Shown here one piece after another: positions 8,916 through 24,482 of a DNA stretch of 64,000 bases. The notes beneath the pieces were generated by a model. It saw only the letters and a list, made by a program, of their open reading frames with translations, made no database searches and was not told the origin of the DNA. A program made the position numbers and the translations under genes. Source of the DNA: Bacilli bacterium (GTDB lineage Bacteria > Bacillota_I > Bacilli_A > RF39 > UBA660); assembly GCA_045636225.1 (NCBI GenBank), contig JAZTXB010000047.1, forward strand, positions 4,742 to 68,741. Reading direction: 5' to 3'. The first letter of the stretch is position 1; every line of letters starts with the position of its first letter.

Positions 8916-8929
8916 AAAAAACCATCTCT

Positions 8930-9463: not shown

Positions 9464-9478
9464 AAAATACTATCCCTT

Positions 9479-10159
9479 CTAATTATTTATATTTTTTATC
9501 CCCACTTCTGGTATCATAACGCCACTTGGTGTATCTATAATAAATTTAATTAATCTAGCTACTTCTTTTGTATCTAATCCATTATCCATATTTTTAGTTA
9601 TATTCATTTTATTAAACATATCAGTTTTCATCATTCCTGGCATTACATTAGTAACTCTTATTCCATATTTTGCTACTTCATCTTGTAAAGATTTAGAAAA
9701 ACCAGTTACACCCCACTTAGATGCATTATAAACTGTTCTTTCTGCTTTATGATTAATTCCAGCTTGTGAATTAATATTAATTATTAATCCATCTTTATTT
9801 TCTTTCATAGATGGTATTACTGATTTTGATGCATTTATTGTCCCAAGTAAATTTACTCCTATTACATCTTGTATTCTATCATAATCATTTGTATCTAATT
9901 CATCTTGAATCCATAAACCAGCATTATTTATTAATACATCTATTTTATTATAATCATTTACAATTTCATTTATAGTTTTTTCAACTTTAACATAATCACT
10001 TACATCACATACTTTATAAGAACAATTATTATTGGTTGATACAACATTTAATTTTTCTTCATTTGTGGCAAGAATAATAACATTATTTTCCCTTGATAAA
10101 AATTCAGTTAATGTTTTTCCTAAGCCATCGCTACCACCTGTAATCACTATTGTTTTCAT
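9479..10159 (-). CDS. short-chain dehydrogenase/reductase (SDR)
   Basis: Motifs ITGGSDGLG (TGxxxGxG), NNAG and YNASK (YxxxK). Confidence 0.9.
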   Translation of the reverse strand: MKTIVITGGSDGLGKTLTEFLSRENNVIILATNEEKLNVVSTNNNCSYKVCDVSDYVKVEKTINEIVNDYNKIDVLINNAGLWIQDELDTNDYDRIQDVIGVNLLGTINASKSVIPSMKENKDGLIININSQAGINHKAERTVYNASKWGVTGFSKSLQDEVAKYGIRVTNVMPGMMKTDMFNKMNITKNMDNGLDTKEVARLIKFIIDTPSGVMIPEVGIKNINN

Positions 10160-10161
10160 TT

Positions 10162-10638
10162 CTATTCCTCCTCAATATTCATAGTAAGTGTTAAATTAAA
10201 ATCCTCAAAACCATTTTTTTTATAAAAACTTATAGCATTACTATTTTTAGCACTTGCAGTTACTGTTAAATTATCTATACCATTTTCTTTACAATAAGTT
10301 TTAAATTCATTAACTAGCTTTTTACCAATACCATAACCTCTACAATTATTTTTTATAAACATATTATTTATTTCACCATATTGTATATTCTCATAAGCAC
10401 CTTTTTCATTTATAGTACCGGCTAAGTATCCAACAATTTCATTATTTAATATTGCTACTACTACATAATGATTAGTTATTAAATCTTCAAAGTAATTTTT
10501 ACCTTCTTCTGTTAATGGCCAATTACTAACTAATGTAGAATCATAATTTTCTTTTTCTAATTTAAATAATTCATTATTCAATTCTTGAATATATTCTAAA
10601 TCATTTATTTGTGCTTTTCTTATTATTAAATCATTCAT
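10162..10638 (-). CDS. GNAT family N-acetyltransferase
   Basis: Acetyl-CoA motif CRGYGIGKKLVNEF (R/QxxGxG/A) in a 158 aa protein of typical GNAT size. Confidence 0.85.
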   Translation of the reverse strand: MNDLIIRKAQINDLEYIQELNNELFKLEKENYDSTLVSNWPLTEEGKNYFEDLITNHYVVVAILNNEIVGYLAGTINEKGAYENIQYGEINNMFIKNNCRGYGIGKKLVNEFKTYCKENGIDNLTVTASAKNSNAISFYKKNGFEDFNLTLTMNIEEE

Positions 10639-10646
10639 TTTATCAC

Positions 10647-11582
10647 CTATATTATTCCTCTTAATATTTCAGTAACATTCTTCATTTCTTTTTCACTTGC
10701 CATAATAGTAATTAATAAATTTTTATTTTTATCCAAAACTATATATTGTCCATTTGTACCATCTCTAAAAACAATATTATCACGAGATATAAATGTAAAA
10801 TATCCTGCGCCTATCTTAGGTAATACTCTTTCTGGCTTATAATAATCTGGGGTATCTACTTGGCACTTGCACATTTCATTTATCCAGTATGATGAGATTA
10901 TTTGATTTCCTTCATATTTACCATCATTAAGTAATAATTTAGCTATCTTATGAAAATCAGTATGTTTTAAATATAATCCTGTAGCCCCCATACAATACTT
11001 ACCATAATTATCCCATTTATATTCATTTATATTAAGTTTTTTAAAAATATTTTCATTAACGAAATCAGATAAATTAATATTAAAATATTCACTAAAAATA
11101 ACAGATATCAAAAATGGTTCAACATTGTTATATGCATATCTCTTATTTGGTTCATATTTAATATCATAATTAAGTGCATAATCTAAAACTTTATCTTTAT
11201 CTATATCTAATAAATATTTTTCTGAAAACATTTGGAATTCATAACCAGTTTGATGTGTTAATAAAGTTTTAATAGTCCATTCTTTTATTTTATCTATATT
11301 ATTTATATTTGTTATATTACATATATCTTTTATTAAAGGATATATTCTTGTATTTAAACTTATTTCTTCATTATTTATTTTCATTTTTCTATCTATAGCT
11401 ATACCAAGTGCCATAGCAACTAATAATTTAGAACAACTTCTAAGTTCATGTAGTTTTTCTTCCTTATAAAACTTAATTTTTAAATTACCATTTTGTTCTA
11501 CAAATACACTATCTATATTTAAACTTAATTTTTTTGATAATTCTACTTTCCTATTATCTATTATATCTAGCATAACATTCAC
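10647..11582 (-). CDS. serine hydrolase, beta-lactamase/PBP4*-fold
   Basis: SCSK (SxxK) near residue 50 and YAYNN (YxN) further on. Confidence 0.75.
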   Translation of the reverse strand: MNVMLDIIDNRKVELSKKLSLNIDSVFVEQNGNLKIKFYKEEKLHELRSCSKLLVAMALGIAIDRKMKINNEEISLNTRIYPLIKDICNITNINNIDKIKEWTIKTLLTHQTGYEFQMFSEKYLLDIDKDKVLDYALNYDIKYEPNKRYAYNNVEPFLISVIFSEYFNINLSDFVNENIFKKLNINEYKWDNYGKYCMGATGLYLKHTDFHKIAKLLLNDGKYEGNQIISSYWINEMCKCQVDTPDYYKPERVLPKIGAGYFTFISRDNIVFRDGTNGQYIVLDKNKNLLITIMASEKEMKNVTEILRGII

Positions 11583-11713
11583 CTAGTAATATTATAGCAC
11601 ATATTACTATTTAAACAATAATATATATTATAATCACACTTATTTCAATTTTAAAAGATAAAACGGAATTCAAAATGAAAATTCACGAATTTAAATAAAT
11701 TTAATTTAACAAC

Positions 11714-11742
11714 TTGACTAATTAAAAAAATTAATTTATACT
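11714..11742 (+). promoter_or_regulatory. sigma-A-type promoter for the candidate sRNA
   Basis: TTGACT (11714-11719), a 17 nt spacer, then TATACT (11737-11742). Confidence 0.45.
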
Positions 11743-11749
11743 TATTATA

Positions 11750-11850
11750 GGTATGGTAACATACCTAGTGTTCTTTACGACGCTTATATGTGAAGGACAC
11801 ACAACCAAAACCCCCTGAAATCCCAGCCGAGAGGCTGGGATACTTTGTTT
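11750..11850 (+). ncRNA. candidate approx 100 nt small RNA of unknown family (three hairpins, last one terminator-like)
   Basis: - No ORF is present.
- Hairpin 1 is GGTATG-GTAA-CATACC (11750-11765).
- Hairpin 2 pairs GTGTTCTTT with GAAGGACAC, using G-U pairs (11768-11800).
- A C-rich linker reads CCCCCTGAAAT.
- Hairpin 3 is CCCAGCC-GAGA-GGCTGGG (11822-11839), followed by ATACTTTGTTT.
- The integrase island starts about 30 nt downstream. Confidence 0.35.
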
Positions 11851-11882
11851 ATAAGGGCTCCAAGCCATTTCATATATGTATT

Positions 11883-11903
11883 AGGTACCCAAATAGGTAC
11901 CCA
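11883..11903. repeat. direct repeat AGGTACCCA-N3-AGGTACCCA; putative left attachment site
   Basis: It lies immediately outside the integrase stop codon (11906). Related copies occur at 20570-20590 (AGGTACCCA-TTT-AGGTACTCA) and 22878-22927. Confidence 0.55.
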
Positions 11904-11905
11904 TT

Positions 11906-13021
11906 TTAATTTAGTTTGTTGATAATGTCGATAATTTCATTCATTTTATTTTTAAATAGATGGGAATAAGTATTTAATGTCTCATCTATTTTTGTATGCC
12001 CTAGATATTTTGCAACTACATTTATACTTGCATTACTATTAATTAGTAATGATGCACAACTATGTCTAAAATCGTGAATCCTTATTTGTTTAACACCGGC
12101 TAGTTTACAATTTCTATTTTTACGACTTCTAATTTTACCATTAGTAATTGGATCGGTATCTCCAAATACATACCACTTATTATTAAATCCATAATACTTT
12201 TCACAAACTTTATATAATTCTTTTAAATCATCGAGTAATACTTTAGGTATAGGGATTTCTCTTATACTAGATTTCGTTTTCGGTGTAGTTACTATATAAG
12301 GTTTGTTTTCATCACCTTGAGTGGCAACTACATTTTTATTAACTCTTAAATAACTATTACCAAAATCAATATCATTCCAAGTAAGACCTCTTAATTCACC
12401 TCTACGAAGACCACAATAATATAAAGTTTCATACATTGTTTTATATAAAATATCTTCTTCTACAGATATAAAACTTTTAAATTCTTCATAGGTAAAGAAT
12501 AACATTTCTTTAGGCATTTCATTTGGATTAGTAAAATTAGTCATTTTATTGTAAGTAGTAGTAAAGTTAAAGTTATACCATTTGCTAGCATAGTTTAATA
12601 ATTCTTTAAAGAATTTAAATAGATGATTTTTATGATTAGTTGTATAACCATAAGAATTAATTTCTTTTTTCCACTTTTCAAAATGTTCTATATTAAAATC
12701 TTTTAATTTAACATTCTCTAAATTTTTAAAGAATTTCTGTCTATCCCTATAAGTTTTTAAAGTAGTAAATTTAACTTTGTCTTCTTTATAAGCATAGAAC
12801 AAAGTGTATAAATCTTTAAAAGTCATATTACGATTATTATCAGCTCTTTCTGTATTAAGAGTAAGAAACTCTCTTTCAGCATTTAAAGCCTCTGTTTTAG
12901 TGAAAAACTTCTTTGACTTATATTTTCTTCTTGTTCCATCTAAATTCTTTACATAGTCATAAAATATCCATTTACGGCCATCTTTTGTCCACTCTGATTT
13001 ATCTAATAATTTAACTGCCAT
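11906..13021 (-). CDS. tyrosine-type site-specific integrase
   Basis: Catalytic signature: GLRRGELRGLTWNDID (Arg I), HDFRHSCASLLI (HxxR) and LGHTKIDETLNTYSHL (catalytic Tyr). A phage-integrase N-terminal SAM-like region is also present. Confidence 0.9.
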   Translation of the reverse strand: MAVKLLDKSEWTKDGRKWIFYDYVKNLDGTRRKYKSKKFFTKTEALNAEREFLTLNTERADNNRNMTFKDLYTLFYAYKEDKVKFTTLKTYRDRQKFFKNLENVKLKDFNIEHFEKWKKEINSYGYTTNHKNHLFKFFKELLNYASKWYNFNFTTTYNKMTNFTNPNEMPKEMLFFTYEEFKSFISVEEDILYKTMYETLYYCGLRRGELRGLTWNDIDFGNSYLRVNKNVVATQGDENKPYIVTTPKTKSSIREIPIPKVLLDDLKELYKVCEKYYGFNNKWYVFGDTDPITNGKIRSRKNRNCKLAGVKQIRIHDFRHSCASLLINSNASINVVAKYLGHTKIDETLNTYSHLFKNKMNEIIDIINKLN

Positions 13022-14000
13022 AGTATTCCTCCTTTGAATCTAAATCATTGCTATAAAATTCTAAAGGTTCCTTATATTTAGCAGTATATAATCTTTCTGT
13101 TGCTGTTCGTTTATTTTCTATTACAAGACCATTTCTTTCAAGTTCTTCTTTATGATTTGCAAGTAACTTACCGAAAGTTGATGGAATAACATTTAACTTT
13201 AATTTACTAACCATATCAGATGCAGTAAAAGTAAATTCTTTCAAACTAATTGCATATCTAAAGAAAGTCATAATGTTTTCATTCCATACTTCATCAGCCA
13301 AGCTATCAATTTTAAGTATCAAGTTTTCATTTCTTTTCAGTACGTAATCTTTACTAGGGTAATCTCTGCTTTCATACTTTAAGTAAAAAGTAGATTTAAT
13401 ATTTTCATCTTGTTTTAATGCAATTTTACCATCTACACAAGTATCAATAGCAGTACTACCTAAAGATTTGCCTTTACGATTTAAATGATGAACTATAATA
13501 ATAGCAACATTATAGTTATTACAAAGTTTTCTTAATTGTGGAAATATATTTTGACTCATATCTTGATAATTATTTAAATCATAATTATTACCAAAATTAA
13601 TTCCGTTAAACATATCAATAAATACTAATTTGCCATTATACTTTTCACTAAATTCAGCAATTTCTTTTTCAACTTTCAAGATACTTATTTGAGTTAAATT
13701 ATCTTCTGGGAAAGTATAAAAGAAATATTTATCATTTAAATCTAATTCCATAAACTTAATTCTACTAATAGTCTCTGATGGATTCATTTCTGTACTTAAA
13801 TATAAAACAGGAGTTTTATTAGTCTTTAAATTTAGAAAAGGAAATCCATTAGCAACAGAGTTTGCTATTTGGAGAGCAATAGCAGATTTACCAACTTTAG
13901 CTTCTCCAAGTAAACAATATAAACCATTTTCTCTAATCATATCTTCAATAATATAATTAATATCGACAATACTACATTTTAATTCTTCAATTGTTTTCAT
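13011..14000 (-). CDS. RecA-fold AAA ATPase (RepA/DnaB-like, element replication or mobilisation)
   Basis: Walker A GEAKVGKS, Walker B LVFIDMF, and the IIVHHLNRKGKSLGS motif common in AAA_25/RepA-like proteins of integrative elements. It overlaps the integrase start by 11 nt. Confidence 0.7.
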   Translation of the reverse strand: MKTIEELKCSIVDINYIIEDMIRENGLYCLLGEAKVGKSAIALQIANSVANGFPFLNLKTNKTPVLYLSTEMNPSETISRIKFMELDLNDKYFFYTFPEDNLTQISILKVEKEIAEFSEKYNGKLVFIDMFNGINFGNNYDLNNYQDMSQNIFPQLRKLCNNYNVAIIIVHHLNRKGKSLGSTAIDTCVDGKIALKQDENIKSTFYLKYESRDYPSKDYVLKRNENLILKIDSLADEVWNENIMTFFRYAISLKEFTFTASDMVSKLKLNVIPSTFGKLLANHKEELERNGLVIENKRTATERLYTAKYKEPLEFYSNDLDSKEEYYGS

Positions 14001-14012
14001 ATAATTTCCTTC

Positions 14013-14249
14013 CTATAAATTTTCTTTAGCCATCTTTTCTAAATAATTAATATTTATTTTTAATTTATTAACGACTTCAATCATTGGTAATCTGTTGTTT
14101 GGTAGAGTGTAGCCTTTAAGTATTAGTTCATCTTTTATCTCACGTCTTAACTTAACAGCATTATTCTTACCAATCTCTGCAAGCTTCATTAAATCATTTA
14201 TATCACACCATTGCTTGCTAATTAATTTTAAAGTTTCTCTAGCGTTCAT
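14013..14249 (-). CDS. small DNA-binding protein, excisionase/regulator-like (78 aa)
   Basis: The call rests on size, position (first gene of the leftward operon, divergent from the XRE gene) and a basic helix-rich sequence. No specific family was recognised. Confidence 0.4.
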   Translation of the reverse strand: MNARETLKLISKQWCDINDLMKLAEIGKNNAVKLRREIKDELILKGYTLPNNRLPMIEVVNKLKININYLEKMAKENL

Positions 14250-14340
14250 ATAAAATTATTCCTCCTTTCGTTTAAACTCTAGATAAAAATGATAACCTTT
14301 TATCTATGTAAGTGATTACCAACTAAAAAAAGAAATTATA

Positions 14341-14358
14341 TTGTGAGTACACTCACAA
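14341..14358. promoter_or_regulatory. palindromic operator O1 in the divergent regulatory region
   Basis: TTGTGAGT-AC-ACTCACAA has perfect 8 bp inverted arms. It lies between the divergent genes at 14249 and 14485. Confidence 0.6.
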
Positions 14359-14398
14359 TTACATATTATCATATAAAAATAATTTAAGTCAATACTTT

Positions 14399-14416
14399 TT
14401 GTGAGTTTAGTGACAA
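14399..14416. promoter_or_regulatory. related operator half-palindrome O2
   Basis: TTGTGAGTTTAGTGACAA shares the TTGTGAGT half-site with O1. The second arm is partially complementary. Confidence 0.4.
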
Positions 14417-14484
14417 AATCTATTGTTGATTAATATAATTTATGGTAAAATTAATATATAAAAAGCAAAAAGAGGTGTACTTTA

Positions 14485-15009
14485 ATGAAAGATAAAACTT
14501 TGGCTAGTGTTGTTAAAAAAGCTAGAGAAAAATTGGGAATTTCTCAAAGAGAATTATCTAGAAGAACTGGTATCGATAATAATACTGTCGCTAAGATAGA
14601 AAAAGGAGAAAGAAAAAAGCCTAATATATTGTCATTAAGAAAATTAAGCGTTGTTTTAAATCTTGATTATAGAAACTTGATGGAATTATGTGATTATAGT
14701 AAAGAAGAAATAAAAGCAATTGCAGATAACAATTATTATAGTTTAGCAATTAGAAATAAAGATGCTTCAATATTAATGATGGAAGATTTAATAAATCTTG
14801 TACAAGAACAAAAATATATTAAGTTAGTTTTAAAAGAATTGTTAGAAAATTGTGATGTTAATAACTTAAAATGTTTATCAGAACTTTCTAAAAAAGAAAA
14901 AACACAAGTAATAAAAAAACTAAATGAATTTATTGATGAGAATACTAAATCAATAGAAAGTCATCAAAACTCAATTGAAAATTTAAATGAAATGTTAGGT
15001 AATAATTAA
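14485..15009 (+). CDS. XRE-family HTH transcriptional regulator with coiled-coil C-terminal extension
   Basis: LGISQRELSRRTGIDNNTVAKIEKGERKKPNILSLRKL is a classic Cro/CI HTH. A GAGGTG RBS is present. Confidence 0.85.
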   Translation: MKDKTLASVVKKAREKLGISQRELSRRTGIDNNTVAKIEKGERKKPNILSLRKLSVVLNLDYRNLMELCDYSKEEIKAIADNNYYSLAIRNKDASILMMEDLINLVQEQKYIKLVLKELLENCDVNNLKCLSELSKKEKTQVIKKLNEFIDENTKSIESHQNSIENLNEMLGNN

Positions 15010-15195
15010 TTTTTTTTCAGTAAGTAATGACAGTATGACATCTATATAGATACTGCATGTGGCTCTCGTACTTTTGTCACTCTGTCATAAAGTTATTGTC
15101 TAGCAAGCAATGAATTTCTACTCCTGTACGAAATTCTATCGTGGGAACTATCCCAAACCCTTATAAAAACTATTAATATTCAGGGAGGTAAAAAA

Positions 15196-17148
15196 ATGTT
15201 AAGTCGTGAAGAAATAAAAGATAATAAAGAAATAAGTAAATTGATTGAATACGGATATGATTTGCATAAAAGACAAATGGAACATTATGAACATTCTATT
15301 CCTAACTTCGAATTTTATAATGGCAATTGTTGTCCAATGAAAAAAGTAGATGGTGGCGGGATATTTGGAATGAGAGGATATGCTAACCATTCTGAAGCAC
15401 GTGTATTTACAACTTTAGGAGTAACAGTTGGAAAACAAAAGAAAGATGGATTTGATTTAGATTATGCTCAGATGATTCAAACAGATAATGGATATCGAAA
15501 TATATATTTTTCAAATTTAAAAATAAGTGATAACCAAAAACACTGGTATACTACATTAGACTATGATAGAAGTAACGATTGGGATCATATGACTGATGAA
15601 GATAAACAACAACTATTTATTAAAACTATGGAATTCATAGGTTTCAAAAAAGAAGATGTATTAGCAGTTTTAAATGGTACTTTAACAGCACGTGAAGCAT
15701 ATATGAATGTTGCCCCAGAAGAAATTAGAAATTTACAATGGGTCAATAAAAGTAGAAGAATGTTTGTATTTGATGGAAATGTTGCAGTTGAAGGAAGATT
15801 TGGTTCAATGGATATGGATAAATTTCCATTCCCTTTTGAAGGGCAGCCTATATTAGATTGCTCAAAAGTTAAAACATCTTGTATATATTTTGAAAACAAT
15901 AATCGTAGAGTAAAATTAATAAATGTAAATTCTAATTCTGAGTCTATTAGTTATACTAACTTAAAAAATGCTATTATAGATGAGCCGATTGATTTATCGC
16001 TAGTAGATGCTACAGGTACAAAATTTGGACATCATACAGTTATCAACTTGGGATGGTCAATAGCAAAATTAGATGATATGGATTTAACACTAGCAGTTAA
16101 TGAAAATGGTGAAAGATATGTAGTAGATGAAAAAGGAAGAGTTCAATTTGATTATGATTATAATCCTAAAACTGTTACTTCATCAAAAATTAAATCAAGA
16201 AATGTTTTGATAATGGCTAATGCAGATAATGAACAAATGACAAAATCTGCAATTGAAAATGATGCTGATGGAGTTGGATTAGTAAGAACGGAACATATTT
16301 TTACAAATATAAATGATGTAAAAAAGATGGTTGAATTATTAGATTATCCTAGTGATGAAGTGGAAAAAGAAAATTTAAAGAGAATTAAAGAATTACAAAT
16401 TAAACAAGTTAAAGAAATATTAAAATCAAATTCAAATCAACCTATAGTATTTAGATTATTAGATTTTAAACTAAAAGAATATTTAAGAAACTTTGGTTTA
16501 ACATTTGATGACTATTATGATGAAGAATATGTAGAGTACTTAAGAGGTGCAGCTATTTTATGTAAAAATAAAAAAGTCTTAGCCACTCAAGTTGAAGCAA
16601 TTTTTGAAACATTAGATGGAATGAATATAGATGTTAATTTACTTATTCCAATGTTAAGATCATCATATGAATTTACTGATATAAAAAAGGAAATAATGAA
16701 GTTGTCTGAAAAGTATAATTTAAAAAGTTTAAAAATTGGTGCAATGATAGAAAATACAACAATGAGTAATGATGCAGATGAATTAGCAAAAGAAGCTGAC
16801 TTTATTTCAATCGGAACTAACGATTTGACTGAAAGTGCAACAGGATTAACTAGAGATAATAATTCAATAGAATTTCAAGAATTAACAGATGAAGTTAAAT
16901 CTGCAATTGAAGAAACTATATTTAGAGCAAGAAGTATTAATCCAAATATAGTTGTTGGTGTATGTGGAGAACATGGAAATTATTTAGAAAATGTTCAATA
17001 CTATAGCACACTTGATATTGATTATATTACGTGCAGCCCTTCATTTATAAGAGCAAATAAAGAGTTTTTAACAAATAATTCTAACTTAGAAGCAAGCAAA
17101 GTAAAACAATTAAAACTTACTGATAAAAAAACAGATGATAAACATTAG
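15196..17148 (+). CDS. PEP-utilising-enzyme C-terminal (PEP/pyruvate-binding TIM barrel) domain protein with unknown approx 330 aa N-terminal domain
   Basis: - Residues approx 335-640 align by eye with the C-terminal domain of pyruvate phosphate dikinase:
  - GVGLVRTEHIF vs GIGLCRTEHMF
  - VFRLLD vs VRYLD
  - IGAMIE vs IGTMIE
  - FISIGTNDLTE vs FFSFGTNDLTQ
  - VGVCGEHG vs CGICGEHGG
  - YITCSP vs YVSCSP
- No ATP-grasp motif and no GGxTSHAA phospho-His swivel motif appears anywhere in the protein.
- A GGGAGG RBS is present. Confidence 0.8.
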   Translation: MLSREEIKDNKEISKLIEYGYDLHKRQMEHYEHSIPNFEFYNGNCCPMKKVDGGGIFGMRGYANHSEARVFTTLGVTVGKQKKDGFDLDYAQMIQTDNGYRNIYFSNLKISDNQKHWYTTLDYDRSNDWDHMTDEDKQQLFIKTMEFIGFKKEDVLAVLNGTLTAREAYMNVAPEEIRNLQWVNKSRRMFVFDGNVAVEGRFGSMDMDKFPFPFEGQPILDCSKVKTSCIYFENNNRRVKLINVNSNSESISYTNLKNAIIDEPIDLSLVDATGTKFGHHTVINLGWSIAKLDDMDLTLAVNENGERYVVDEKGRVQFDYDYNPKTVTSSKIKSRNVLIMANADNEQMTKSAIENDADGVGLVRTEHIFTNINDVKKMVELLDYPSDEVEKENLKRIKELQIKQVKEILKSNSNQPIVFRLLDFKLKEYLRNFGLTFDDYYDEEYVEYLRGAAILCKNKKVLATQVEAIFETLDGMNIDVNLLIPMLRSSYEFTDIKKEIMKLSEKYNLKSLKIGAMIENTTMSNDADELAKEADFISIGTNDLTESATGLTRDNNSIEFQELTDEVKSAIEETIFRARSINPNIVVGVCGEHGNYLENVQYYSTLDIDYITCSPSFIRANKEFLTNNSNLEASKVKQLKLTDKKTDDKH

Positions 17149-17165
17149 AAATAAGGAGATAAGAT

Positions 17166-17615
17166 ATGGATATAAATTTTAGAAATGCTAAATTAGAAGA
17201 TAAAGAATTTATTTTAAATGCAAATAGAGAAATAAATATATTATCAGGACTTAATGATAGTACATTTGATAACAACATTGATAAAGATCTATTTGAAGAT
17301 AAAATTTGTAAAGTTATTATTGCTGAAATTGATAATAATATTGCAGGATTTGTTTTATATTCTTATATTTATTGGGCAAATTGTGGAAAAGGAATTTATT
17401 TATCACAAGCTTATGTTAAAAATGAATATAGAAAACAAGGAATATTAAAAATGTTATTACAAGAATTAGAGACAAGAGAAAAAGAATGTAATTTTATAAC
17501 AAATCTTGTAGGGAATGAAAATGAAGTTATGATGAAATCATTAAATAAATTAAATTTTAAATCATCAGATTTAACAACTTATTATAGAAAAACTAAGGAG
17601 AATGTTAATGAATAA
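17166..17615 (+). CDS. GNAT family N-acetyltransferase
   Basis: 149 aa. The motif YRKQGILKMLLQELE fits the acetyl-CoA binding loop. An AAGGAG RBS sits 17 nt after the upstream stop. Confidence 0.8.
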   Translation: MDINFRNAKLEDKEFILNANREINILSGLNDSTFDNNIDKDLFEDKICKVIIAEIDNNIAGFVLYSYIYWANCGKGIYLSQAYVKNEYRKQGILKMLLQELETREKECNFITNLVGNENEVMMKSLNKLNFKSSDLTTYYRKTKENVNE

Positions 17616-18210
17616 AAAAATAGTACTAACTTCTTGTGGGATAATAAATGAAGATGTAAAAAAAGAGTTTTATAAATTACTAAATAAAGAAATTGAAAAT
17701 ATTAAAGTTTTATACATAACTACAGCAATAGATGGTGAAGATGATTCTGATACAAGTTGGATTGAAGAAGAATTTCAAACTATTTTAAATTTAGGTATAA
17801 AAAAAGAAAATATTAAAGAGTACAAAATGGATTATGATATAAATTTATCTTTGTTTGATATGATATATATGATGGGTGGAAATACATTTTACTTACTGAA
17901 AAAAATTAGAGATACTAAATTTGATATAAAATTAAAAGAGGCTATAAATAATGGATTAATTTATGTTGGGTCTAGTGCTGGAAGTATTGTTTTAGGAAAC
18001 ACTATTGAATTAGCTCTAGCGTACGATAAAAATGATGTGAATTTAACTGATTTTACAGGATTGAAACTAATTGACGGCATAATTGTCCCTCATGCAAATA
18101 GGAAGCAAGAGTTTATTAAAGAAAAGAAAAAACAATATAAGGAAAAAATATATGCCGTGCATGATGAACACGGAGTCATAGTAAATAATAATGAATTGAA
18201 AGAAATTTAG
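17608..18210 (+). CDS. peptidase family S51 (PepE / dipeptidase E-like)
   Basis: MMGGNTFYLLKKIR, VGSSAGSIVLG (nucleophile Ser) and VPHAN (His) match the PepE motifs GGGNTFQLL, GWSAGAN and PH. The start was moved to the ATG at 17608 (AAGGAG RBS), which overlaps the GNAT stop. Confidence 0.75.
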   Translation: MNKKIVLTSCGIINEDVKKEFYKLLNKEIENIKVLYITTAIDGEDDSDTSWIEEEFQTILNLGIKKENIKEYKMDYDINLSLFDMIYMMGGNTFYLLKKIRDTKFDIKLKEAINNGLIYVGSSAGSIVLGNTIELALAYDKNDVNLTDFTGLKLIDGIIVPHANRKQEFIKEKKKQYKEKIYAVHDEHGVIVNNNELKEI

Positions 18211-18218
18211 GTGTAAAA

Positions 18219-19628
18219 ATGATAAGAATTAAATCAATAAAATTTTACAATCATAAAATATTTGGGAATCAGTTTTTTGATTTTACAATTGACGGGAACA
18301 ATCCAGTTAATAATATTATTTTTGCAGGAGAAAATGGTAGCGGAAAAACAAAGTTATTAGAGGAATTACATAACGTTAGTAATTTTTCTTTCTTTGCAAA
18401 TTATGGTATTTATTCTCAAAAAACACATGAGATAATTGTAGATTTATCAACAGAAAACTACTGTGATATTAACAATGATGATATAAAGATAAATGAAGCG
18501 ATTTTAACTATATCAAAAAACGCTGAGGAAAACACTTCTAATAATTTAGTTTTTTTAAGTAATGGAAATAAGATAAAAAACGTTAAAAGAGCTGGCTCTA
18601 CAGACAGAGTTATCTCTTTAAAAATAAATGGATTATATTCTAATGTGGATATAAATTATAAACCTAGAAATACTATTCAAGGAATAACTAATAAGACATT
18701 AGATAATGATAATAATTCTATCCCTAATGATATGGCATCAGAAATTATACAACTTCTAGTTGATATAGCAATACAAGATAGCTGTGACGTTGATTCTTGG
18801 ATAGGGAGTCATAGAAATGCAGTTGTTCCTGATAACATTTATCACACCAGGTTAAAAAGATTTACTAATGCGTTTGAAAAAATGTTTGAAGACACAATAA
18901 AATACAAAGAAATTAGAAATAATTCTATTCCAATATTTGAAAAAAATAATAATGAAATAGAAATTTCATCATTAAGTTCTGGGGAAAAACAAGTTATATT
19001 TAGAGGAATTTACTTACTTAGAAATAAGAATAGTTTAAAAGGTGTTCCTGTATTTATTGACGAACCTGAAATAAGTATGCACCCTAAATGGGAAGAAACA
19101 ATATTTGAGTATTATAAAAATATATTTTCGGAAGAAAATATTCAAACATCACAAATGTTTGTCGCAACTCATTCGGAGCATATTTTATCTAATGTTTTAA
19201 ATTATAATGATAGTTTAGTAATAAAAATAAAAGATAATACTACTCAAAAATTCTATAAAAATGGGCCAGGCACAATTTTACCAACTATAACATTGGCAGA
19301 AATAAAATATAGTATTTTTGACTTATATACTACAGATTTCCATACTTTGCTTTATGGATATATACAACAAAATTTTGTTTCCGATAATAATGGGCAGTTA
19401 ATTGATAATCCCAATATTTTACAAACAGATGAATGGTTGAAAAATCAAAATGTTCCTCTAAAAGAATATGTTAAACAGATTAGTCCTACGCATACTAAAC
19501 ATTATGATACACTTTCAACATATATAAGGAATTGCATTGATCATCCGGATGATGATCATAGTTATTGCAATGAAGAATTAATTACATCTATAGAGAAAAT
19601 GATAGAAATAATTAATAACAACAATTAG
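18219..19628 (+). CDS. ABC-type (AAA_15/AAA_21-like) ATPase with unknown approx 130 aa C-terminal domain
   Basis: Walker A GENGSGKTKLLEEL, signature-like LSSGEKQV, Walker B VFIDEPEISMHP and H-loop ATHSEHIL. The architecture is shared by the ATPase components of many anti-phage systems. Confidence 0.8.
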   Translation: MIRIKSIKFYNHKIFGNQFFDFTIDGNNPVNNIIFAGENGSGKTKLLEELHNVSNFSFFANYGIYSQKTHEIIVDLSTENYCDINNDDIKINEAILTISKNAEENTSNNLVFLSNGNKIKNVKRAGSTDRVISLKINGLYSNVDINYKPRNTIQGITNKTLDNDNNSIPNDMASEIIQLLVDIAIQDSCDVDSWIGSHRNAVVPDNIYHTRLKRFTNAFEKMFEDTIKYKEIRNNSIPIFEKNNNEIEISSLSSGEKQVIFRGIYLLRNKNSLKGVPVFIDEPEISMHPKWEETIFEYYKNIFSEENIQTSQMFVATHSEHILSNVLNYNDSLVIKIKDNTTQKFYKNGPGTILPTITLAEIKYSIFDLYTTDFHTLLYGYIQQNFVSDNNGQLIDNPNILQTDEWLKNQNVPLKEYVKQISPTHTKHYDTLSTYIRNCIDHPDDDHSYCNEELITSIEKMIEIINNNN

Positions 19629-19812
19629 AAATATAAAGAAATGCAAAATAACATTGGCTTTATTTTTTCAGCGAGTATGTAATGTTCTCTAATATATTAA
19701 TTAAGCCTCTTTCTTTGCATAGGGGTTGGGAAAATTCCCATATATGAATTGTTGCGGGAGTAAGAATTCAGTGCTGGCACAGACAGAAACTTACTCCCTT
19801 AAAGGCATTTAA

Positions 19813-19847
19813 AGCACTATCTGAAAAAAGATAGTGCTTATTTTTTT
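19813..19847 (+). terminator. rho-independent terminator of the cargo operon
   Basis: AGCACTATC-TGAAAAAA-GATAGTGCT is followed by TATTTTTTT. It abuts the stop of the convergent gene at 19846. Confidence 0.75.
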
Positions 19848-20157
19848 AATTATAATTAATTAGTTTTAATTTAGTGATATTTACGATTTTTAAATTATAT
19901 TTAATTCTTAAAATTAGTTCGATTTGTGGTATTAACTTATCAATATTACATCTAACATTAAATACATCTATTGCAGAGTTGATATGATTACGAAGTGGAC
20001 AATCTGATAAACAATTTCTACTATGTCCATTTGCTAAATAAAATGCTATTGTATCGGGTATAACAAAGTTAATAAGATACTCATTATAATTGTTATAAAA
20101 TGGTAATAATATTTCTTTAAATTCTTTATCAGTTATATCTTCTTTACCTTTAATCAT
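19846..20157 (-). CDS. hypothetical protein (103 aa)
   Basis: ORF whose start is translationally coupled (4 nt overlap) to the TnpV-like gene. No motif recognised. Confidence 0.5.
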   Translation of the reverse strand: MIKGKEDITDKEFKEILLPFYNNYNEYLINFVIPDTIAFYLANGHSRNCLSDCPLRNHINSAIDVFNVRCNIDKLIPQIELILRIKYNLKIVNITKLKLINYN

Positions 20158-20516
20158 ATTTCATCTCCATATACGATTTCTCTTAAAACTATTTCTTCAG
20201 CAATGTTTTTACAAGTATTCATTTTTTGAATCCATAACATTTGATTTTTAGCTTTTAATTTTTCAGTAATAGTATCATCAAATTCTATTAGTTCATTTAT
20301 TAAATAATTAACTTTATTTTCTGCTTCTTTACTTACTGAAAAAAGATGTTCGTTTAGTTTATCTTTCATTAGTAATTCTTGAAATAATGCTTTCTTATGA
20401 TTTTTTAAATATTCTAATCTTAATAATCCATATTTATTTAATTGTTTATTTTCTTTTTCAGCAAGTGCTAAATCAGGTAAGTAATAATCTCCATATTTTT
20501 TATAATTTATTTTCAT
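20154..20516 (-). CDS. TnpV-like transposon-associated protein
   Basis: YGDYYLPDL...NKYGLLRLEYLKNHKKALFQELLMKDKLNEHL...KAKNQMLWIQKMN...AEEIVLREIVY follows the pattern I recall for the TnpV family of clostridial mobilisable transposons. An AAAGGAA RBS is present. Confidence 0.55.
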   Translation of the reverse strand: MKINYKKYGDYYLPDLALAEKENKQLNKYGLLRLEYLKNHKKALFQELLMKDKLNEHLFSVSKEAENKVNYLINELIEFDDTITEKLKAKNQMLWIQKMNTCKNIAEEIVLREIVYGDEI

Positions 20517-20569
20517 AATTTCAATTCCTTTCTTTTGTGAAGAATATTAGTAGTATTATTTTTAATTTT

Positions 20570-20590
20570 AGGTACCCATTTAGGTACTCA
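20570..20590. repeat. AGGTACCCA-TTT-AGGTACTCA; putative right attachment site
   Basis: Imperfect copy of the repeat at 11883-11903. Confidence 0.5.
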
Positions 20591-20704
20591 ATCACTAAAA
20601 TCTCTTAAAATTATATAAATTTTTATAATTAGATTTAATTTATAATTGCTTAAAATATAAGGATTTAATTAGCAATAATTTATTTCATATATGAAAGGTT
20701 TTGG

Positions 20705-20745
20705 CCCCCTGAAGACTAGCCGAGAGGCTAGTCATTTTTGTTTTT
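20705..20745 (+). repeat. CCCCCTGAAG + GNRA hairpin + T-run module (copy B)
   Basis: CCCCCTGAA, then GACTAGCC-GAGA-GGCTAGTC, then ATTTTTGTTTTT. It is homologous to 11811-11850, with compensatory changes in the stem. Confidence 0.6.
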
Positions 20746-20797: not shown

Positions 20798-20822
20798 AGG
20801 TAACAAAAAGGTAACATTTTTT
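20798..20822. repeat. 25 nt direct repeat AGGTAACAAAAAGGTAACATTTTTT (left copy)
   Basis: Identical to 22661-22685. An inverted TGTTACC lies at 20833-20839, giving three GGTAACA sites upstream of the phosphoesterase gene. Confidence 0.7.
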
Positions 20823-20968
20823 GTTGCTTAAGTGTTACCTAAAAGCCAATTTTACAAAAATTAATCTTCATAAATGCTTATAAAATAAGACTTTTTGATA
20901 AATTTGAGTCAGTCCAAATAGTTTTGGTTGATTTGTATGGTATAATTATATTGAGAGGTGAATACTTT

Positions 20969-21688
20969 ATGAAAATCGCAGTTTTTTCTGATATACATGG
21001 AAATTTACAAGCATTAAAAGCAATTGTTGCGGATATTAATAAAAATAATTTTGATGAAGTTATTTGTTTAGGTGATGTCATTGCAATGGGACCTAATCCA
21101 AAAGAGTGTCTTGATTTGATAATCGATAATAATTATAAAATGGTTTTAGGAAATCATGAGTTGTATTATATAAAAGGAACACAAATAGATGATGAAATGG
21201 GAGAAGGAGAAATAAAACATCAAAACTGGATTAAAGAACAATTGAAAGATGATTATATAGACTTTCTTAACAAATGCCCAATGAAAATAGAAATAACTAA
21301 AAATAATATAAAACTTTTATTTCAACATTTTTTAATTGATGATAATTCAAAAGATGAATATCCATTAGAAGATCTAAGTATTGTTAAAGATGCTAGAATT
21401 AGTGAACAGTTTGATAAAATTGATACAAATTATATGTTTATTGGTCATGAACACAAAAGTTTTGATGTGAATATAAACAATAAAAAATTATTTGATGCTG
21501 GAAGTAGCGGTTGTAGAAAAGATGAAGAAACATTTTATACTGTTATTACAATTGCAAATGATGTTGTTAATATTGAAAAAAAATATTTGATTTATGATAG
21601 AGATCAATTTGTTTCGACATTAAAAAATATAGAATATCCGGACAGAAAAATAATTTCAAAAATATTTTTTGGAATAAATGATTTATAA
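20969..21688 (+). CDS. metallophosphoesterase (calcineurin-like, YfcE/MPP family)
   Basis: Motifs KIAVFSDIHGN, LGDVIAMGP, LGNHE and IGHEH. The start was moved to the ATG at 20969 (GAGAGGTG RBS). Confidence 0.85.
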   Translation: MKIAVFSDIHGNLQALKAIVADINKNNFDEVICLGDVIAMGPNPKECLDLIIDNNYKMVLGNHELYYIKGTQIDDEMGEGEIKHQNWIKEQLKDDYIDFLNKCPMKIEITKNNIKLLFQHFLIDDNSKDEYPLEDLSIVKDARISEQFDKIDTNYMFIGHEHKSFDVNINNKKLFDAGSSGCRKDEETFYTVITIANDVVNIEKKYLIYDRDQFVSTLKNIEYPDRKIISKIFFGINDL

Positions 21689-21722: not shown

Positions 21723-22628
21723 ATGAAGTTTAGTAAATTCACAAATATAAAAGATGAAGAAAAATTTTTTACAACAAAATATATGATATATAAATATAAA
21801 TTTGCACCTGTATATATAGATAGTGGTATTGATATACCGGATTGTTATTTTGAATTTGAAAATAAATTTTTCGCAGTAGAAGTTACAAGATATTTTCAGC
21901 AAAATTCAGAAAAAGAACATCAAGAATATGTAAATCTTGTAGAAAAATACCTTGAGAATAATTTTTTTAAAGAAGCATATCATCGTTTAGGTAGAAGAAA
22001 AGCAGAAAATGTAACGATCTCATTTTATAATCTTGATGAATTAAAAGATTTAATAATTAATAATAGTAATTATATAAAAAATATATTTATTGGAGATAAT
22101 TATTATCTTAACGAAAAAAAAGAAAAGCTTGGAGATGTCTACTTAATTGGAAATGAAAAAGAAAAAATGACGATAGTAGAATTTATAGATTCACTTTCTA
22201 ATGAAATATGTAATGAAGAGAATATAGAATTAGAAATATTTACAAGGAACAGATATGATATTTCGATAAGTTTTAAATTTTGTAAAATTCCTTATTATGG
22301 AAAGAATAATGATAAAAAAGTAATTCCGGTATTTTGTTGGTTTGTAAATGATAATGAATTATATGACAACATTATTAAGATTATTTTGCATAAAAATAAA
22401 AAATTAATAAATGAATATATTCCTAAATTTGCAGAACATAATATAAAGTATGATAATTATAATTTAGTTGTATATAATGAGGGAATACCAGCAGATTTAG
22501 ATGAAGAAAAATTGTTTGCTCAAGTCAAGAAAATTGATAATTTAAAATATCAAGAAATAGCGATATTCTTATGGAAAAAAGTTATGGTAATAAGTAATAA
22601 TAATTATCAAGTTTTTCATACTAAATAG
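21723..22628 (+). CDS. hypothetical protein (301 aa), weak PD-(D/E)xK-like motif
   Basis: ORF 34 nt downstream of the phosphoesterase gene. IPDCYFEFENKFFAVEVTRY might be a degenerate nuclease motif, but this is not convincing. Confidence 0.45.
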   Translation: MKFSKFTNIKDEEKFFTTKYMIYKYKFAPVYIDSGIDIPDCYFEFENKFFAVEVTRYFQQNSEKEHQEYVNLVEKYLENNFFKEAYHRLGRRKAENVTISFYNLDELKDLIINNSNYIKNIFIGDNYYLNEKKEKLGDVYLIGNEKEKMTIVEFIDSLSNEICNEENIELEIFTRNRYDISISFKFCKIPYYGKNNDKKVIPVFCWFVNDNELYDNIIKIILHKNKKLINEYIPKFAEHNIKYDNYNLVVYNEGIPADLDEEKLFAQVKKIDNLKYQEIAIFLWKKVMVISNNNYQVFHTK

Positions 22629-22660: not shown

Positions 22661-22685
22661 AGGTAACAAAAAGGTAACATTTTTT
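22661..22685. repeat. 25 nt direct repeat AGGTAACAAAAAGGTAACATTTTTT (right copy)
   Basis: Identical to 20798-20822. The two copies bracket the two-gene cassette. Confidence 0.7.
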
Positions 22686-22927: not shown

Positions 22928-23052
22928 AAGTCTAGTTTATTAAACCATTATAAATACTGGCTTTAAATATAAAAAAGAGTGCCTTTTGTTCGAATACTAT
23001 GATATAATTAAACTGTTGTTAGCAACGATAACTTAATGAGGTGATTAGTGTT

Positions 23053-24339
23053 ATGTCTAAGAAAACTGTTTCGGAATTATGGGAAGAAATATTTTTTGAT
23101 TTTGATATTATAAATAATATAAATAGTGAAGGTTATTTTAAAATAACGGCTGATGATATTAGAAAATATAAAGAGCCAAGATTAATGACTAAATTTGATT
23201 ATTCAAAACAATTACCTAAAATTTTCAAAGAAAATAAATTAGGAATTTTACCTATTAAAAATGGTGAATATATTATTGGTAAGTATAATTTGTTTAAGAA
23301 TATTTCAAATACTAAGTATGAAGATGTTATTCCAATAAAAAAACAAATGCCTTCTTATATAGAAACAATAGATCCAGATAACATATATTCAGAGAGTAAT
23401 GCATTAAATGTTGCTCTTTTATCAGGAATGATTAAAGATACTATTGGAGAAGAAGTGGTTGAAACTATACAAGGGAAGATGAGAGCAACAGGATTTAAAT
23501 TTGATATTGATGGCGATTTAGGAACACAATCTATTACTATAGAGAAACCTGCTATGGAAATAGATGGTGGCTATGAAGGTAAAAAAAACGTGGTATTAAT
23601 AGAAGCGAAGAATTATCTTCCTGATGATTTCATAATTCGTCAACTGTATTATCCTTATAGACATTGGTTTAATAAAGTAAATAAAAAAGTAGTTCCAATT
23701 TTCTTTGGATATGAAAACGGAATATATAATTTTTTTGTTTATGAATTTTTAGATTTAAATAATTATAATTCATTATCTTTAAAAGAAATTAAAAGATTTA
23801 TAATTTCTAATGAAACTTCTGAAGAGCTAAAATTAAGAATTTTTAATAATATTCAGTTGCAAGAAGAAAAAAAACAAAGTGAAATGCCTTTTCCACAAGC
23901 AGATTCTTTTGCTAAAGTTTTTGGTTTATTGGATATACTTGATGAAAATATTAATTCTGAAGATGTAGCTGAATTTTATGAATTTGATACTAGACAAGGT
24001 AGTTACTATTTATCGGCTGCTAAATATTTAGGGTTAATAGAAGGAAATTATGGAAAGTATAAATTAACTACGGATGGTTTTACAATAATTAATGCTGATA
24101 CAAAAAATAGAAATGAACAATTGATTTCACTAATTTTGAAACATAAAGTATTTTACTTTACATACAAATATTATTTGGAAAATAAAAAATTACCTAACAA
24201 AAAGTTTATTATCGAACTTATGAAAGAATATACGGACATACCAAAATTTAATAAAGATGGTAAAGAAAACGAAGTATTTAATAGAAGGGCTAGTACTGTA
24301 AGAGGTTGGGTTCAATGGATAATAGGATGTCAAGTTTAG
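23053..24339 (+). CDS. putative PD-(D/E)xK restriction-endonuclease-like protein with C-terminal wHTH-like region
   Basis: EIDGGYEGKKNVVLIEAKN fits D...(D/E)xK. The N-terminal half resembles orphan type II restriction-enzyme-like families. The C-terminal approximately 150 aa is helical. The start was moved to the ATG at 23053 (GAGGTGA RBS). No methyltransferase gene is nearby. Confidence 0.4.
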   Translation: MSKKTVSELWEEIFFDFDIINNINSEGYFKITADDIRKYKEPRLMTKFDYSKQLPKIFKENKLGILPIKNGEYIIGKYNLFKNISNTKYEDVIPIKKQMPSYIETIDPDNIYSESNALNVALLSGMIKDTIGEEVVETIQGKMRATGFKFDIDGDLGTQSITIEKPAMEIDGGYEGKKNVVLIEAKNYLPDDFIIRQLYYPYRHWFNKVNKKVVPIFFGYENGIYNFFVYEFLDLNNYNSLSLKEIKRFIISNETSEELKLRIFNNIQLQEEKKQSEMPFPQADSFAKVFGLLDILDENINSEDVAEFYEFDTRQGSYYLSAAKYLGLIEGNYGKYKLTTDGFTIINADTKNRNEQLISLILKHKVFYFTYKYYLENKKLPNKKFIIELMKEYTDIPKFNKDGKENEVFNRRASTVRGWVQWIIGCQV

Positions 24340-24365
24340 ACATCTTTTTTCTTATAAACAAACGA

Positions 24366-24397
24366 CCTGAAGACAGCCGAGAGGATCTCATTTTTTT
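24366..24397 (+). repeat. degenerate copy D of the CCTGAAG-hairpin-T-run module
   Basis: CCTGAAGACAGCCGAGAGGATCTCATTTTTTT keeps the 5' flank, the AGCCGAGAGG core and T7, but the stem is broken. Confidence 0.4.
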
Positions 24398-24482
24398 ACT
24401 ATTTATCATAAAATACTATTTATATGTTTAATTTCGTGTTATAATTTTTTTATAAGATAAAATAGTAAGTGAGTGTGATAAT

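Follow-up and report, generated by a model that had tools for sequence, protein, structure and literature searches.

Pyruvate phosphate dikinase (PPDK), phosphoenolpyruvate (PEP) synthase (PpsA) and enzyme I of the phosphotransferase system (PTS) have in common a barrel of the PF02896 family, by which a phosphoryl group is exchanged between PEP and a swivel-domain histidine, and to our knowledge all characterised PF02896 enzymes make use of such a swivelling phospho-histidine relay. Rifampin phosphotransferase (RPH) keeps the ATP-grasp domain and the swivel histidine of this machinery, the PEP barrel being absent. Among small mobile elements of the Firmicutes, mobilisable transposons of the Tn4451 type carry tnpV. 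The present analysis concerns a stretch of 64,000 nucleotides (here called the window) from a member of the Bacilli (RF39, UBA660; contig JAZTXB010000047.1, positions 4,742 to 68,741, assembly GCA_045636225.1), in which four consecutive genes at window positions 15196-19628 encode a protein with a PEP barrel (gene 1), a GNAT acetyltransferase, an S51 peptidase and an ABC-type ATPase. The locus is compared here with the described PEP enzymes and with related elements, from which gene 1 emerges as a member of an orphan enzyme family and the four-gene array as a mosaic of mobile cargo.

The only Pfam family recognised in the 650 residues of gene 1 is PEP-utilizers_C (residues 333-626, E 2e-47, 162 bits against a cut-off of 22.8). 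A direct check of the sequence finds the motifs RTEH at 364, FRLLD at 419, MIE at 517, GTNDL at 540 and CGEHG at 590, and no TSH motif. The barrel is nearest to that of PPDK, both by profile search of the Protein Data Bank (PDB; E 1e-44) and by Foldseek (E 5e-20), the barrel being the only part of the protein matched. R364, R420, E519, N542, D543 and C590 align with R561, R617, E745, N768, D769 and C831 of PPDK, residues which bind PEP and Mg and protonate the enolate, and D423 is the equivalent of D620; all seven are essentially invariant in 150 members of the family. These members are full-length proteins of about 600-660 residues, encoded mostly in metagenome-assembled genomes of uncultured gut and rumen 'Bacilli', Mycoplasmatota and Erysipelotrichaceae, and the ratio of non-synonymous to synonymous substitution rates (dN/dS) is 0.16-0.27 in both domains. 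The AlphaFold2 (AF2) model of the complete protein has a predicted local distance difference test score (pLDDT) of 89 and a predicted template modelling score (pTM) of 0.83, with a short low-confidence linker at residues 330-333. The scores of gene 1 against NCBIfam models (129, 108 and 84) fall far short of the respective cut-offs of 843, 598 and 342, and a search of one literature library found no description of this PF02896 architecture or of a PEP-based defence system. These comparisons show that gene 1 belongs, as an autonomous enzyme, to a small family of orphans, and that its PPDK-derived PEP site is, as judged from its residues, fully intact.

The domain which precedes the barrel has no relatives outside this family. 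No Pfam, NCBIfam, PHROGs or PADLOC model covers residues 1-330 (for NCBIfam, residues 1-290 are uncovered), and Foldseek yields no match, its best values being E 0.07 (TM-score under 0.2) for the PDB and E 0.035 for BFVD. An exhaustive phmmer search of 1.84 billion representatives returns 36 proteins, which are either gene-1-like and equipped with the barrel or short possible fragments, and neither this nor a profile search finds the domain in any other architecture; one candidate for an alternative architecture, P0275, was rejected as a spurious repeat-protein match. The N-terminal domain is as conserved as the barrel and subject to purifying selection of equal strength, with the motifs NHS at 64, FPFPF at 210, DCSK at 221, LINVN and IIDExIDLSxVDA. 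D221 is invariant among the 150 members and C222 and E263 are nearly so, and no histidine of the domain is invariant: H279 is replaced by E, R, S or N in about ten members and H65 by D in two. The segment VDATGTKFGHHTVI (residues 270-283), which by eye resembles the DAGGRTSHTS of enzyme I, was considered as a cryptic swivel and rejected, as there is no Foldseek match to PPDK, enzyme I or PpsA and H279 is replaced in several clades. A cryptic pair of swivel and ATP-grasp domains is excluded as far as fold and sequence searches tell. A preliminary description of the locus, made from the nucleotide sequence alone, had held that gene 1 possesses the PEP/pyruvate barrel with all its catalytic residues, that it lacks both the ATP-grasp and the swivel domain, and that its N-terminal domain of about 330 residues could not be assigned; all of this is borne out by the motifs, the Pfam results and the lack of any Foldseek, Pfam, PHROGs or HMMER relative of that domain beyond the gene-1 family.

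Two further observations concern this protein. Residues 254-303 (15955-16104) exhibit a periodicity reminiscent of pentapeptide repeats (TNLKN AIIDE .. IDLSL VDATG TKFGH), and the model places beta bridges about every five residues around 255-265; neither a Pfam Pentapeptide match nor a Foldseek match to a beta-helix is obtained for this segment. A metagenomic homologue of 871 residues, P0254, is the one paralogue of gene 1 with a degenerate PEP site (R420K, E519A, N542S and D543A). H65 and H279 are both lost in it, and it is extended at the C-terminus by about 240 residues; it may be a catalytically dead derivative.

Comparison with the described PEP enzymes sets gene 1 apart from each of them. 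With PPDK of Clostridium symbiosum (PDB 1KBL/1DIK), its best sequence match, it has in common the TIM-barrel fold and the equivalents of the seven residues listed above, yet it carries the 330-residue orphan domain in addition and has neither of the two partner domains of the dikinase. The ATP-grasp family PF01326 is missing, given that residues 1-290 have no Pfam or NCBIfam coverage and no structural match, and so is the swivel family PF00391, for which there is no Pfam match, no TSH motif and no Foldseek similarity of the N-terminal domain to PPDK or enzyme I chains. Without these two domains the dikinase reaction is impossible. PTS enzyme I and PEP synthase also possess the PEP barrel with its active-site residues, but their similarity to gene 1 is weaker than that of PPDK; gene 1 lacks the HPr-binding domain as well as the swivel, and no PTS genes are adjacent. 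Since the barrel and its active site are present while the swivel and nucleotide-binding domains are absent, gene 1 should not be filed as a dikinase, a synthase or an enzyme I, and represents a variant of the PEP-utilising enzymes. RPH is a conceptual analogue, whereby a dikinase-family module has been joined to a new domain that binds the substrate and occurs amid genes of resistance type. Gene 1, however, retains only the barrel, and there is no sequence relationship in the N-terminal domain.

The second part of the finding concerns the company in which gene 1 is found. Homologues at 33-91% identity were collected from metagenome assemblies and GTDB species representatives in 41 loci, or about 26 after removal of near-duplicates. 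When the partner proteins of the window are used as tblastn queries, the GNAT and the ATPase are absent from all of these loci, and a relative of the S51 peptidase appears in a single group of them (36% identity over 83 residues). A Pfam census of 110 neighbours within three genes on either side of the homologues records NUDIX seven times, HAD four times and helix-turn-helix (HTH) proteins four times, the rest being singletons, with no fixed partner. All-against-all clustering of the neighbours likewise reveals no partner common across clades. Synteny is confined to individual clades, as with a HAD gene in the clade of about 41% identity and an open reading frame (ORF) for a SnoaL-like protein in two close loci, and a conserved unannotated partner of gene 1 is ruled out by the same clustering.

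Sister elements of the one in the window define the units which are exchanged. One of them, L042, has the integrase (91% amino acid identity), the AAA_25 protein (98%), orf78 (100%), the XRE regulator and the leader, followed by genes for NUDIX, GNAT and metallo-beta-lactamase (MBL) proteins and then by an 88%-identical ATPase. In the elements L015 and L016, the XRE gene, the leader and a gene 1 of 80% identity are followed by two small ORFs, of which one is SnoaL-like, and then by a NikA-like gene, orf103 and TnpV (96%); comparison of the sister elements finds no ATPase in this pair. The breaks in DNA homology coincide with gene boundaries (17141, 18205 and 19635-19704), and the block of GNAT and S51 genes (17166-18210) is present, among the sister elements compared, in the window element only. 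Because the sister elements share backbone and leader and swap their cargo, the array is read as mosaic cargo, carried by an element of about 8.9 kb (Table 1). It is not one system, and comprises at least three independently assorting cassettes: gene 1, the GNAT and S51 genes, and the ATPase gene.

Table 1. Coordinates of the element, its backbone and cargo genes, the domains of gene 1, and the DNA blocks shared with sister elements (window positions)
Feature	Position	Strand	Basis or remark
Integrative, probably mobilisable element, ~8.9 kb	11810-20715		Limits of DNA homology to L042 and L015/L016; bracketed by tandem repeats
Left terminal tandem repeat AGGTACCCAAATAGGTACC, putative integrase-binding/att-proximal site	11883-11901	+	Adjoins 3' end of integrase gene
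Tyrosine integrase, 371 aa, backbone	11906-13021	-	Pfam Phage_integrase E 1e-26; 91% identical in L042
AAA_25/DnaB-like ATPase, 329 aa, backbone	13011-14000	-	Pfam AAA_25 E 2e-22; PHROGs primase/helicase families; 98% identical in L042
Small backbone ORF, 78 aa (orf78)	14013-14249	-	100% identical in L042
Best promoter-like site GTGACA-18-TATAAT, 5' of XRE gene	14410-14439	+	11 of 12 positions match; consensus match only
XRE-family HTH regulator, 174 aa, backbone	14485-15009	+	Pfam HTH_3 E 1e-13; homologous XRE at same position in L042 and L015/L016
Block shared with L015	15006-17141		Leader and gene 1
Leader, 186 nt	15010-15195	+	Common to all three sister elements regardless of first cargo gene
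Gene 1, 650 aa	15196-17148	+	ORF scan
Gene 1, N-terminal orphan domain (aa 1-330)	15196-16185	+	AF2 pLDDT 92; only found fused to PEP barrel
Gene 1, C-terminal PEP/pyruvate-binding TIM barrel (aa 333-628) and disordered tail	16192-17148	+	PF02896 E 2e-47
GNAT acetyltransferase, 149 aa, cargo found in this element only	17166-17615	+	Pfam Acetyltransf_1 E 7e-10
S51 (PepE-like) serine peptidase, 202 aa, cargo found in this element only	17602-18210	+	PF03575 E 2e-29
Block shared with L042	18205-19704		ATPase; start is end of S51 gene
ABC-type ATPase (AAA_21/AAA_15, PtuA/AriA-like), stand-alone, independent cassette, 469 aa	18219-19628	+	Pfam, PADLOC, contexts of homologues
R437-N-C-I-D-H442 (Rx4H, HEPN-like) motif, ATPase C-terminal domain	19527-19544	+	Invariant in 30 homologues
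Block shared with both L042 and L015	19635-19704		70-bp segment after ATPase
Strong hairpin terminator, 11-bp stem and T-run, closing the cargo unit	19812-19839	+	Terminator scan
Backbone ORF, 103 aa (orf103)	19846-20157	-	90% identical in L015
TnpV, 120 aa, backbone	20154-20516	-	PF14198 E 3e-35; 96% identical in L015
Right terminal tandem repeat AGGTACCCATTTAGGTACT	20570-20588	+	Just past TnpV start

In the mechanism proposed for gene 1, the barrel would bind Mg-PEP as in PPDK and enzyme I. The N-terminal domain would dock on the barrel in the place of the swivel domain and present an acceptor, most likely a small molecule, to the phosphoryl group of PEP, and the protein would then act as a one-step PEP-dependent phosphotransferase which dispenses with the phospho-histidine relay. 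Candidates for catalysis or acceptor binding would be the invariant D221 together with C222, H65 and E263. The degeneracy of the PEP site in P0254 coincides with the loss of H65 and H279, and this co-loss is a single hint that the two histidines may work with the PEP site. Direct presentation of the acceptor by the N-terminal domain is put forward as the most economical, though tentative, proposal, which falls somewhat short of being probable. In a broader version, gene 1 would found a new mechanistic class among the PEP-utilising enzymes, the mirror image of RPH: the barrel would pass a phosphoryl or an enolpyruvyl group directly to a small molecule held in the new-fold domain, and mobile elements would disseminate the gene among gut Bacilli as a determinant of resistance, detoxification or signal inactivation. 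This version is rather unlikely to hold in all its parts. The genomic contexts are of two kinds: close homologues occupy variable islands with retron-type reverse transcriptase (RT)-protease genes, restriction-modification (R-M) genes, Fic proteins or integrases, and the clades of about 40% identity occupy stable chromosomal strings of small enzymes (NUDIX, HAD, MBL, His_Phos, SDR, GNAT and radical SAM).

The overall explanation, which combines the mosaic cargo with gene 1 as an autonomous orphan-family enzyme working by the proposed mechanism, is on balance probable, and several points weigh against it. We know of no precedent for direct phosphoryl transfer from PEP to a small molecule by a PF02896 barrel. 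Some close homologues of gene 1 are located beside defence-type genes, as in L001, where a retron-type RT-protease, an R-M system and Fic proteins are encoded, and gene 1 by itself may therefore have a role in defence. Phosphatase-type neighbours recur (NUDIX, HAD, His_Phos and inositol phosphatase), which could indicate a shared pathway or merely reflect the make-up of the gene strings. Co-transcription could still give rise to functional interplay between the four genes in this particular element. Finally, the C-terminal domain of the ATPase is a candidate HEPN-like domain on the strength of a sequence motif and a single borderline profile match.

One alternative for gene 1 retains a covalent relay. 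D221, or H65 or H279 depending on the clade, would be phosphorylated by PEP and would pass the group on to a protein or small-molecule target, the N-terminal domain being in effect a non-homologous replacement for the swivel. The precedent of a relay in all the known PF02896 enzymes, the invariance of D221, the near-invariance of H65 and the joint loss of H65, H279 and PEP-site residues in P0254 are in its favour. It is nonetheless unlikely, since no histidine is kept throughout the family (H279 and H65 both being replaced, as described above), the N-terminal domain has no fold similarity to a swivel domain although swivel structures are in the PDB, and no conserved partner protein is encoded nearby.

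Another alternative takes gene 1 alone as a toxic or abortive-infection effector, which would hydrolyse PEP to pyruvate and phosphate under the control of an N-terminal sensor or gate, with the XRE protein as its repressor. An intact PEP site with no obvious phospho-acceptor domain would suit such a function, as would its location 3' of an XRE gene in a mobile element and the occurrence of close homologues in the islands with retron-type RT-protease, R-M genes and Fic proteins. Yet no PADLOC model matches gene 1, and most homologues, especially in the clades of about 40% identity, are found in stable chromosomal strings of housekeeping-like small enzymes without a regulator or an immunity gene. 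In L042 it is a NUDIX gene that follows the XRE gene and the leader, both of them parts of the backbone, and the N-terminal domain has many invariant polar residues, as would befit a site for catalysis or ligand binding and more than sensing alone. PEP depletion is therefore decidedly unlikely, and one-step transfer to an acceptor in the N-terminal domain remains the preferred, if tentative, reading of gene 1.

The two genes between gene 1 and the ATPase gene code for proteins of common types. The S51 protein scores 103 bits against a Pfam cut-off of 23.9, a direct check finds the motifs GGNTF at 92, SAGS at 125 and PH at 163, and the sequence aligns with the solved PepE-like peptidases 6IRU, 6A4T and 3L4E across the GxSAGS nucleophile and PH motifs; by its serine and histidine motifs it is a genuine PepE-like peptidase. 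No specific NCBIfam subfamily accommodates the GNAT protein, all of its scores being far under the cut-offs. None of the other loci in which gene 1 or the ATPase has a homologue carries this GNAT, and the GNAT-S51 pair was found neither elsewhere in the gene-1 loci nor in one metagenome-wide S51 scan, which returned a distant relative only; a recurrent pair was ruled out, as no other locus contains it. Both proteins are generic small enzymes, typical of cargo slots and of chromosomal small-enzyme strings.

By analogy with MccE/MccF, it had been suggested that the GNAT and S51 genes, with or without gene 1, make up a cassette for detoxification of, or immunity to, an antibiotic of peptide-nucleotide or other type. 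The overlap of the two genes by 14 nucleotides and their insertion as one block between two breakpoints are consistent with such a unit, and sister or related loci carry cargo and neighbours of classes typical of resistance or detoxification (GNAT, MBL, NUDIX, CAT and ABC-F). The analogy with microcin C is loose, however, because MccF is an LD-carboxypeptidase-like S66 peptidase, accompanied by a RimL-type GNAT whose substrates are aminoacyl-nucleotides, and the peptidase of the window belongs to S51; the GNAT, without a subfamily assignment, matches no specific resistance subfamily. With the pair found at this locus only and gene 1 travelling without either gene, the MccE/MccF-like proposal is not supported and an immunity cassette of any composition is held to be quite improbable.

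The ATPase has a Walker A motif (GENGSGKT at 37), a signature motif (LSSGE at 252) and a Walker B motif (FIDEPE at 279), and belongs to a family of more than 1,200 full-length homologues, which occur behind different cargo (L042), beside polysaccharide loci (L043-L045) and after a pair of AAA+ and S8 protease genes (L046-L047). Its best PADLOC match is PtuA (E 1e-27), which reflects generic ATPase similarity only. Profile matches in the PDB to PtuA, AriA and retron ATPases (E 6e-11 to 1e-7) are restricted to the signature and Walker B region, and the PtuA model of NCBIfam, with its cut-off of 500, scores the protein at 38.5. With the ATPases of Septu (PtuA), PARIS (AriA) and the retrons Ec78 and Ec83 it thus has in common the ABC-type AAA_15/AAA_21 core. 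In contrast to Septu, there is no PtuB (HNH) partner and no plus-strand ORF between the ATPase gene and the terminator, and the homologues occur alone. The resemblance to AriA is weak, and neither AriB nor DUF4435 or TOPRIM is detected by Pfam in the ATPase or its neighbours. Unlike all of these ATPases, the window protein has a conserved C-terminal domain of its own, of 130 residues (340-469; 19236-19628), with an RNxxxH motif. The domain ends in an invariant TYIRNxIDHP (R437, N438 and H442), the R437/H442 motif being kept in 30 homologues at 34-88% identity. RNases of the HEPN superfamily bear an Rx4-6H motif before the final helix of an all-alpha domain, and the spacing here is Rx4H. The C-terminal domain has no Pfam match, including to any HEPN family, and its single borderline profile match is to the HEPN-2 region of Cas13d (E 0.007), which aligns a different segment from R437-H442. 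It is plausible that the protein is a fused ATPase-HEPN of a stand-alone defence or abortive-infection type.

The account given in the preliminary description of the layout of the four genes and of the encoded proteins is confirmed. The ORF scan reproduces exactly the four plus-strand genes, which overlap or are separated by 17 nucleotides at most (a gap of 17 between gene 1 and the GNAT gene, the overlap already mentioned, and a gap of 8 between the S51 and ATPase genes). They lie behind an XRE gene and a 186-nucleotide leader in an integrase-bearing element, as shown by the ORF scan, Pfam and the sharing of the leader among sister elements; Pfam matches and motifs likewise agree with a GNAT, an S51 peptidase and an AAA_15/AAA_21 ATPase. 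Genes 1-3 are each preceded by a Shine-Dalgarno-like sequence. The terminator scan detects no plus-strand site from the promoter-like site (14410) to the ATPase gene and a weak one within that gene, at 19538, and the first beyond its stop is the hairpin at 19812-19839. With these ribosome-binding sequences, one upstream promoter-like site and the first post-stop terminator located 3' of the ATPase gene, it is plausible that the array from the XRE gene to the ATPase gene is a single transcription unit, probably read from the backbone promoter through the leader.

This packing does not make the four genes a functional system, as the preliminary description had supposed in proposing a defence module of all four. 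In a dedicated anti-phage system, the ATPase would be the sensor and the PEP barrel the effector, for which the tight co-directional array with its single promoter-like site and its terminator after the ATPase stop, and the resemblance of the ATPase to PtuA and AriA, could be adduced. But the four genes never co-occur elsewhere, the census of gene-1 neighbourhoods finding their homologues non-syntenic; the ATPase and gene 1 are each found without the other in backbone-sharing sister elements which demonstrate independent assortment; and homologues of the ATPase stand alone in unrelated contexts. PADLOC-DB v2 gives no match for genes 1-3, by which a known defence system is ruled out for them, and only partnerless, generic ATPase matches for gene 4. 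A four-gene system is on these grounds highly improbable and the defence-module hypothesis falls with it. The chance that gene 1 is a decaying PPDK remnant, a pseudogene or an annotation artefact is negligible: the barrel is most similar to that of PPDK, yet 150 full-length homologues, a dN/dS of 0.16-0.27, near-invariant catalytic residues and a confident two-domain model speak against decay.

The leader is part of the backbone, with 91% identity to L042 (14990-15161) and 87% to L015 (from 15006). It has no Rfam match at any threshold, and its fold z-score of -1.77 is non-significant; together with its position in the backbone ahead of differing genes, these results rule out a riboswitch or attenuator. 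Positions 15018-15098 contain an imperfect inverted repeat formed from TGACAG/TGACAT and TGTCAC/TGTCAT, which is kept in the sister elements whatever their first cargo gene. The repeat is a candidate XRE operator or stem-loop, the fold being statistically non-significant.

The element itself has a recombinase, bracketing repeats and a backbone which recurs in sister elements with different flanks, as is characteristic of integrative elements. Exactly two copies of the tandem motif AGGTACC-N5-AGGTACY are present in the 64 kb, where 0.02 would be expected, and they bracket the homologous region 11810-20715. The AAA_25/DnaB-like protein probably serves replication or mobilisation. At 90% identity, the cluster of the integrase numbers 402 members and those of gene 1 and the ATPase 5 and 3, from which it follows that the backbone is common and the present cargo rare. 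With Tn4451-type elements the element has in common TnpV, small size and swappable cargo behind a regulator; it differs in having a tyrosine integrase instead of a large serine recombinase, and no match is found in plasmid or phage collections. An origin from a phage or plasmid was rejected, as IMG/VR contains no relatives, tblastn searches of INPHARED and PLSDB with the N-terminal domain of gene 1 are null, and so is a DNA search of PLSDB with cargo and backbone. A tRNA or tmRNA attachment site was ruled out as well: the window has none, and the intergenic region 11583-11905 gives Rfam matches at chance level only. Within this region, positions 11583-11880 contain a promoter-like TTGACT...TATACT, a GC-richer segment of about 100 nucleotides and a CCCAGCC-GAGA-GGCTGGG hairpin, and the homology to sister elements begins inside it, at 11810; the stretch could be a small RNA or an attachment region.

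Several features of the flanking DNA deserve mention. To the left of the element (8370-11582, minus strand), the host chromosome carries a co-directional string of NUDIX, His_Phos_1, SDR, GNAT and beta-lactamase-like genes, and distant homologues of gene 1 in other genomes occupy neighbourhoods of this kind. The chromosomal GNAT gene of this region, just outside the element (10162-10638, minus strand), is 78% identical in DNA to the cargo GNAT gene of L042 (5705-6181 of that locus). A small-enzyme string beside the element and a GNAT gene so similar to cargo suggest that the cargo slots are filled from the same pool of genes as the chromosomal strings and that exchange takes place between the two. 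To the right, a perfect 25-nucleotide direct repeat, AGGTAACAAAAAGGTAACATTTTTT, at 20798-20822 and 22661-22685 brackets a metallophosphoesterase gene (20924-21688) and an ORF of 301 residues (21723-22628), and the AGGTAmC half-sites of the repeat resemble the element-end repeats at 11883 and 20570. The bracketed segment could be another small cassette or element, which has docked next to the first. Further on (23041-27077, plus strand) follow a DUF6996/DUF6997/DUF7226 protein and a UvrD-like helicase with C-terminal Top1-type zinc ribbons. These genes and the element make up a plus-strand block from about 14 to 27 kb with reversed GC skew in an otherwise minus-strand chromosome, which may be a larger variable or defence-like region. 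In one of the gene-1 loci, L006, a 381-residue bacterial protein with a ubiquitin-family domain (Pfam E 1e-24) is encoded at 6468-7613, 5' of a 49%-identical homologue of gene 1, and its gene adjoins one for a Dam-type methyltransferase, the block around them being made up of unknown genes.

The mosaic described here is a clear case in which operon-like packing on a mobile element imitates a multi-gene system, and the exact cassette boundaries defined by the sister elements make clean single-gene experiments straightforward. The gene-1 family is tiny and mostly confined to uncultured gut Bacilli, and its architecture would surprise a specialist. If the proposed mechanism is true, the family would show that PEP can serve as a phosphoryl donor in a second manner, an orphan domain taking the place of the phospho-histidine machinery. 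It would then also constitute an unrecognised class of mobile enzymes in the accessory genomes of gut Firmicutes, possibly relevant to the modification of xenobiotics or antibiotics.

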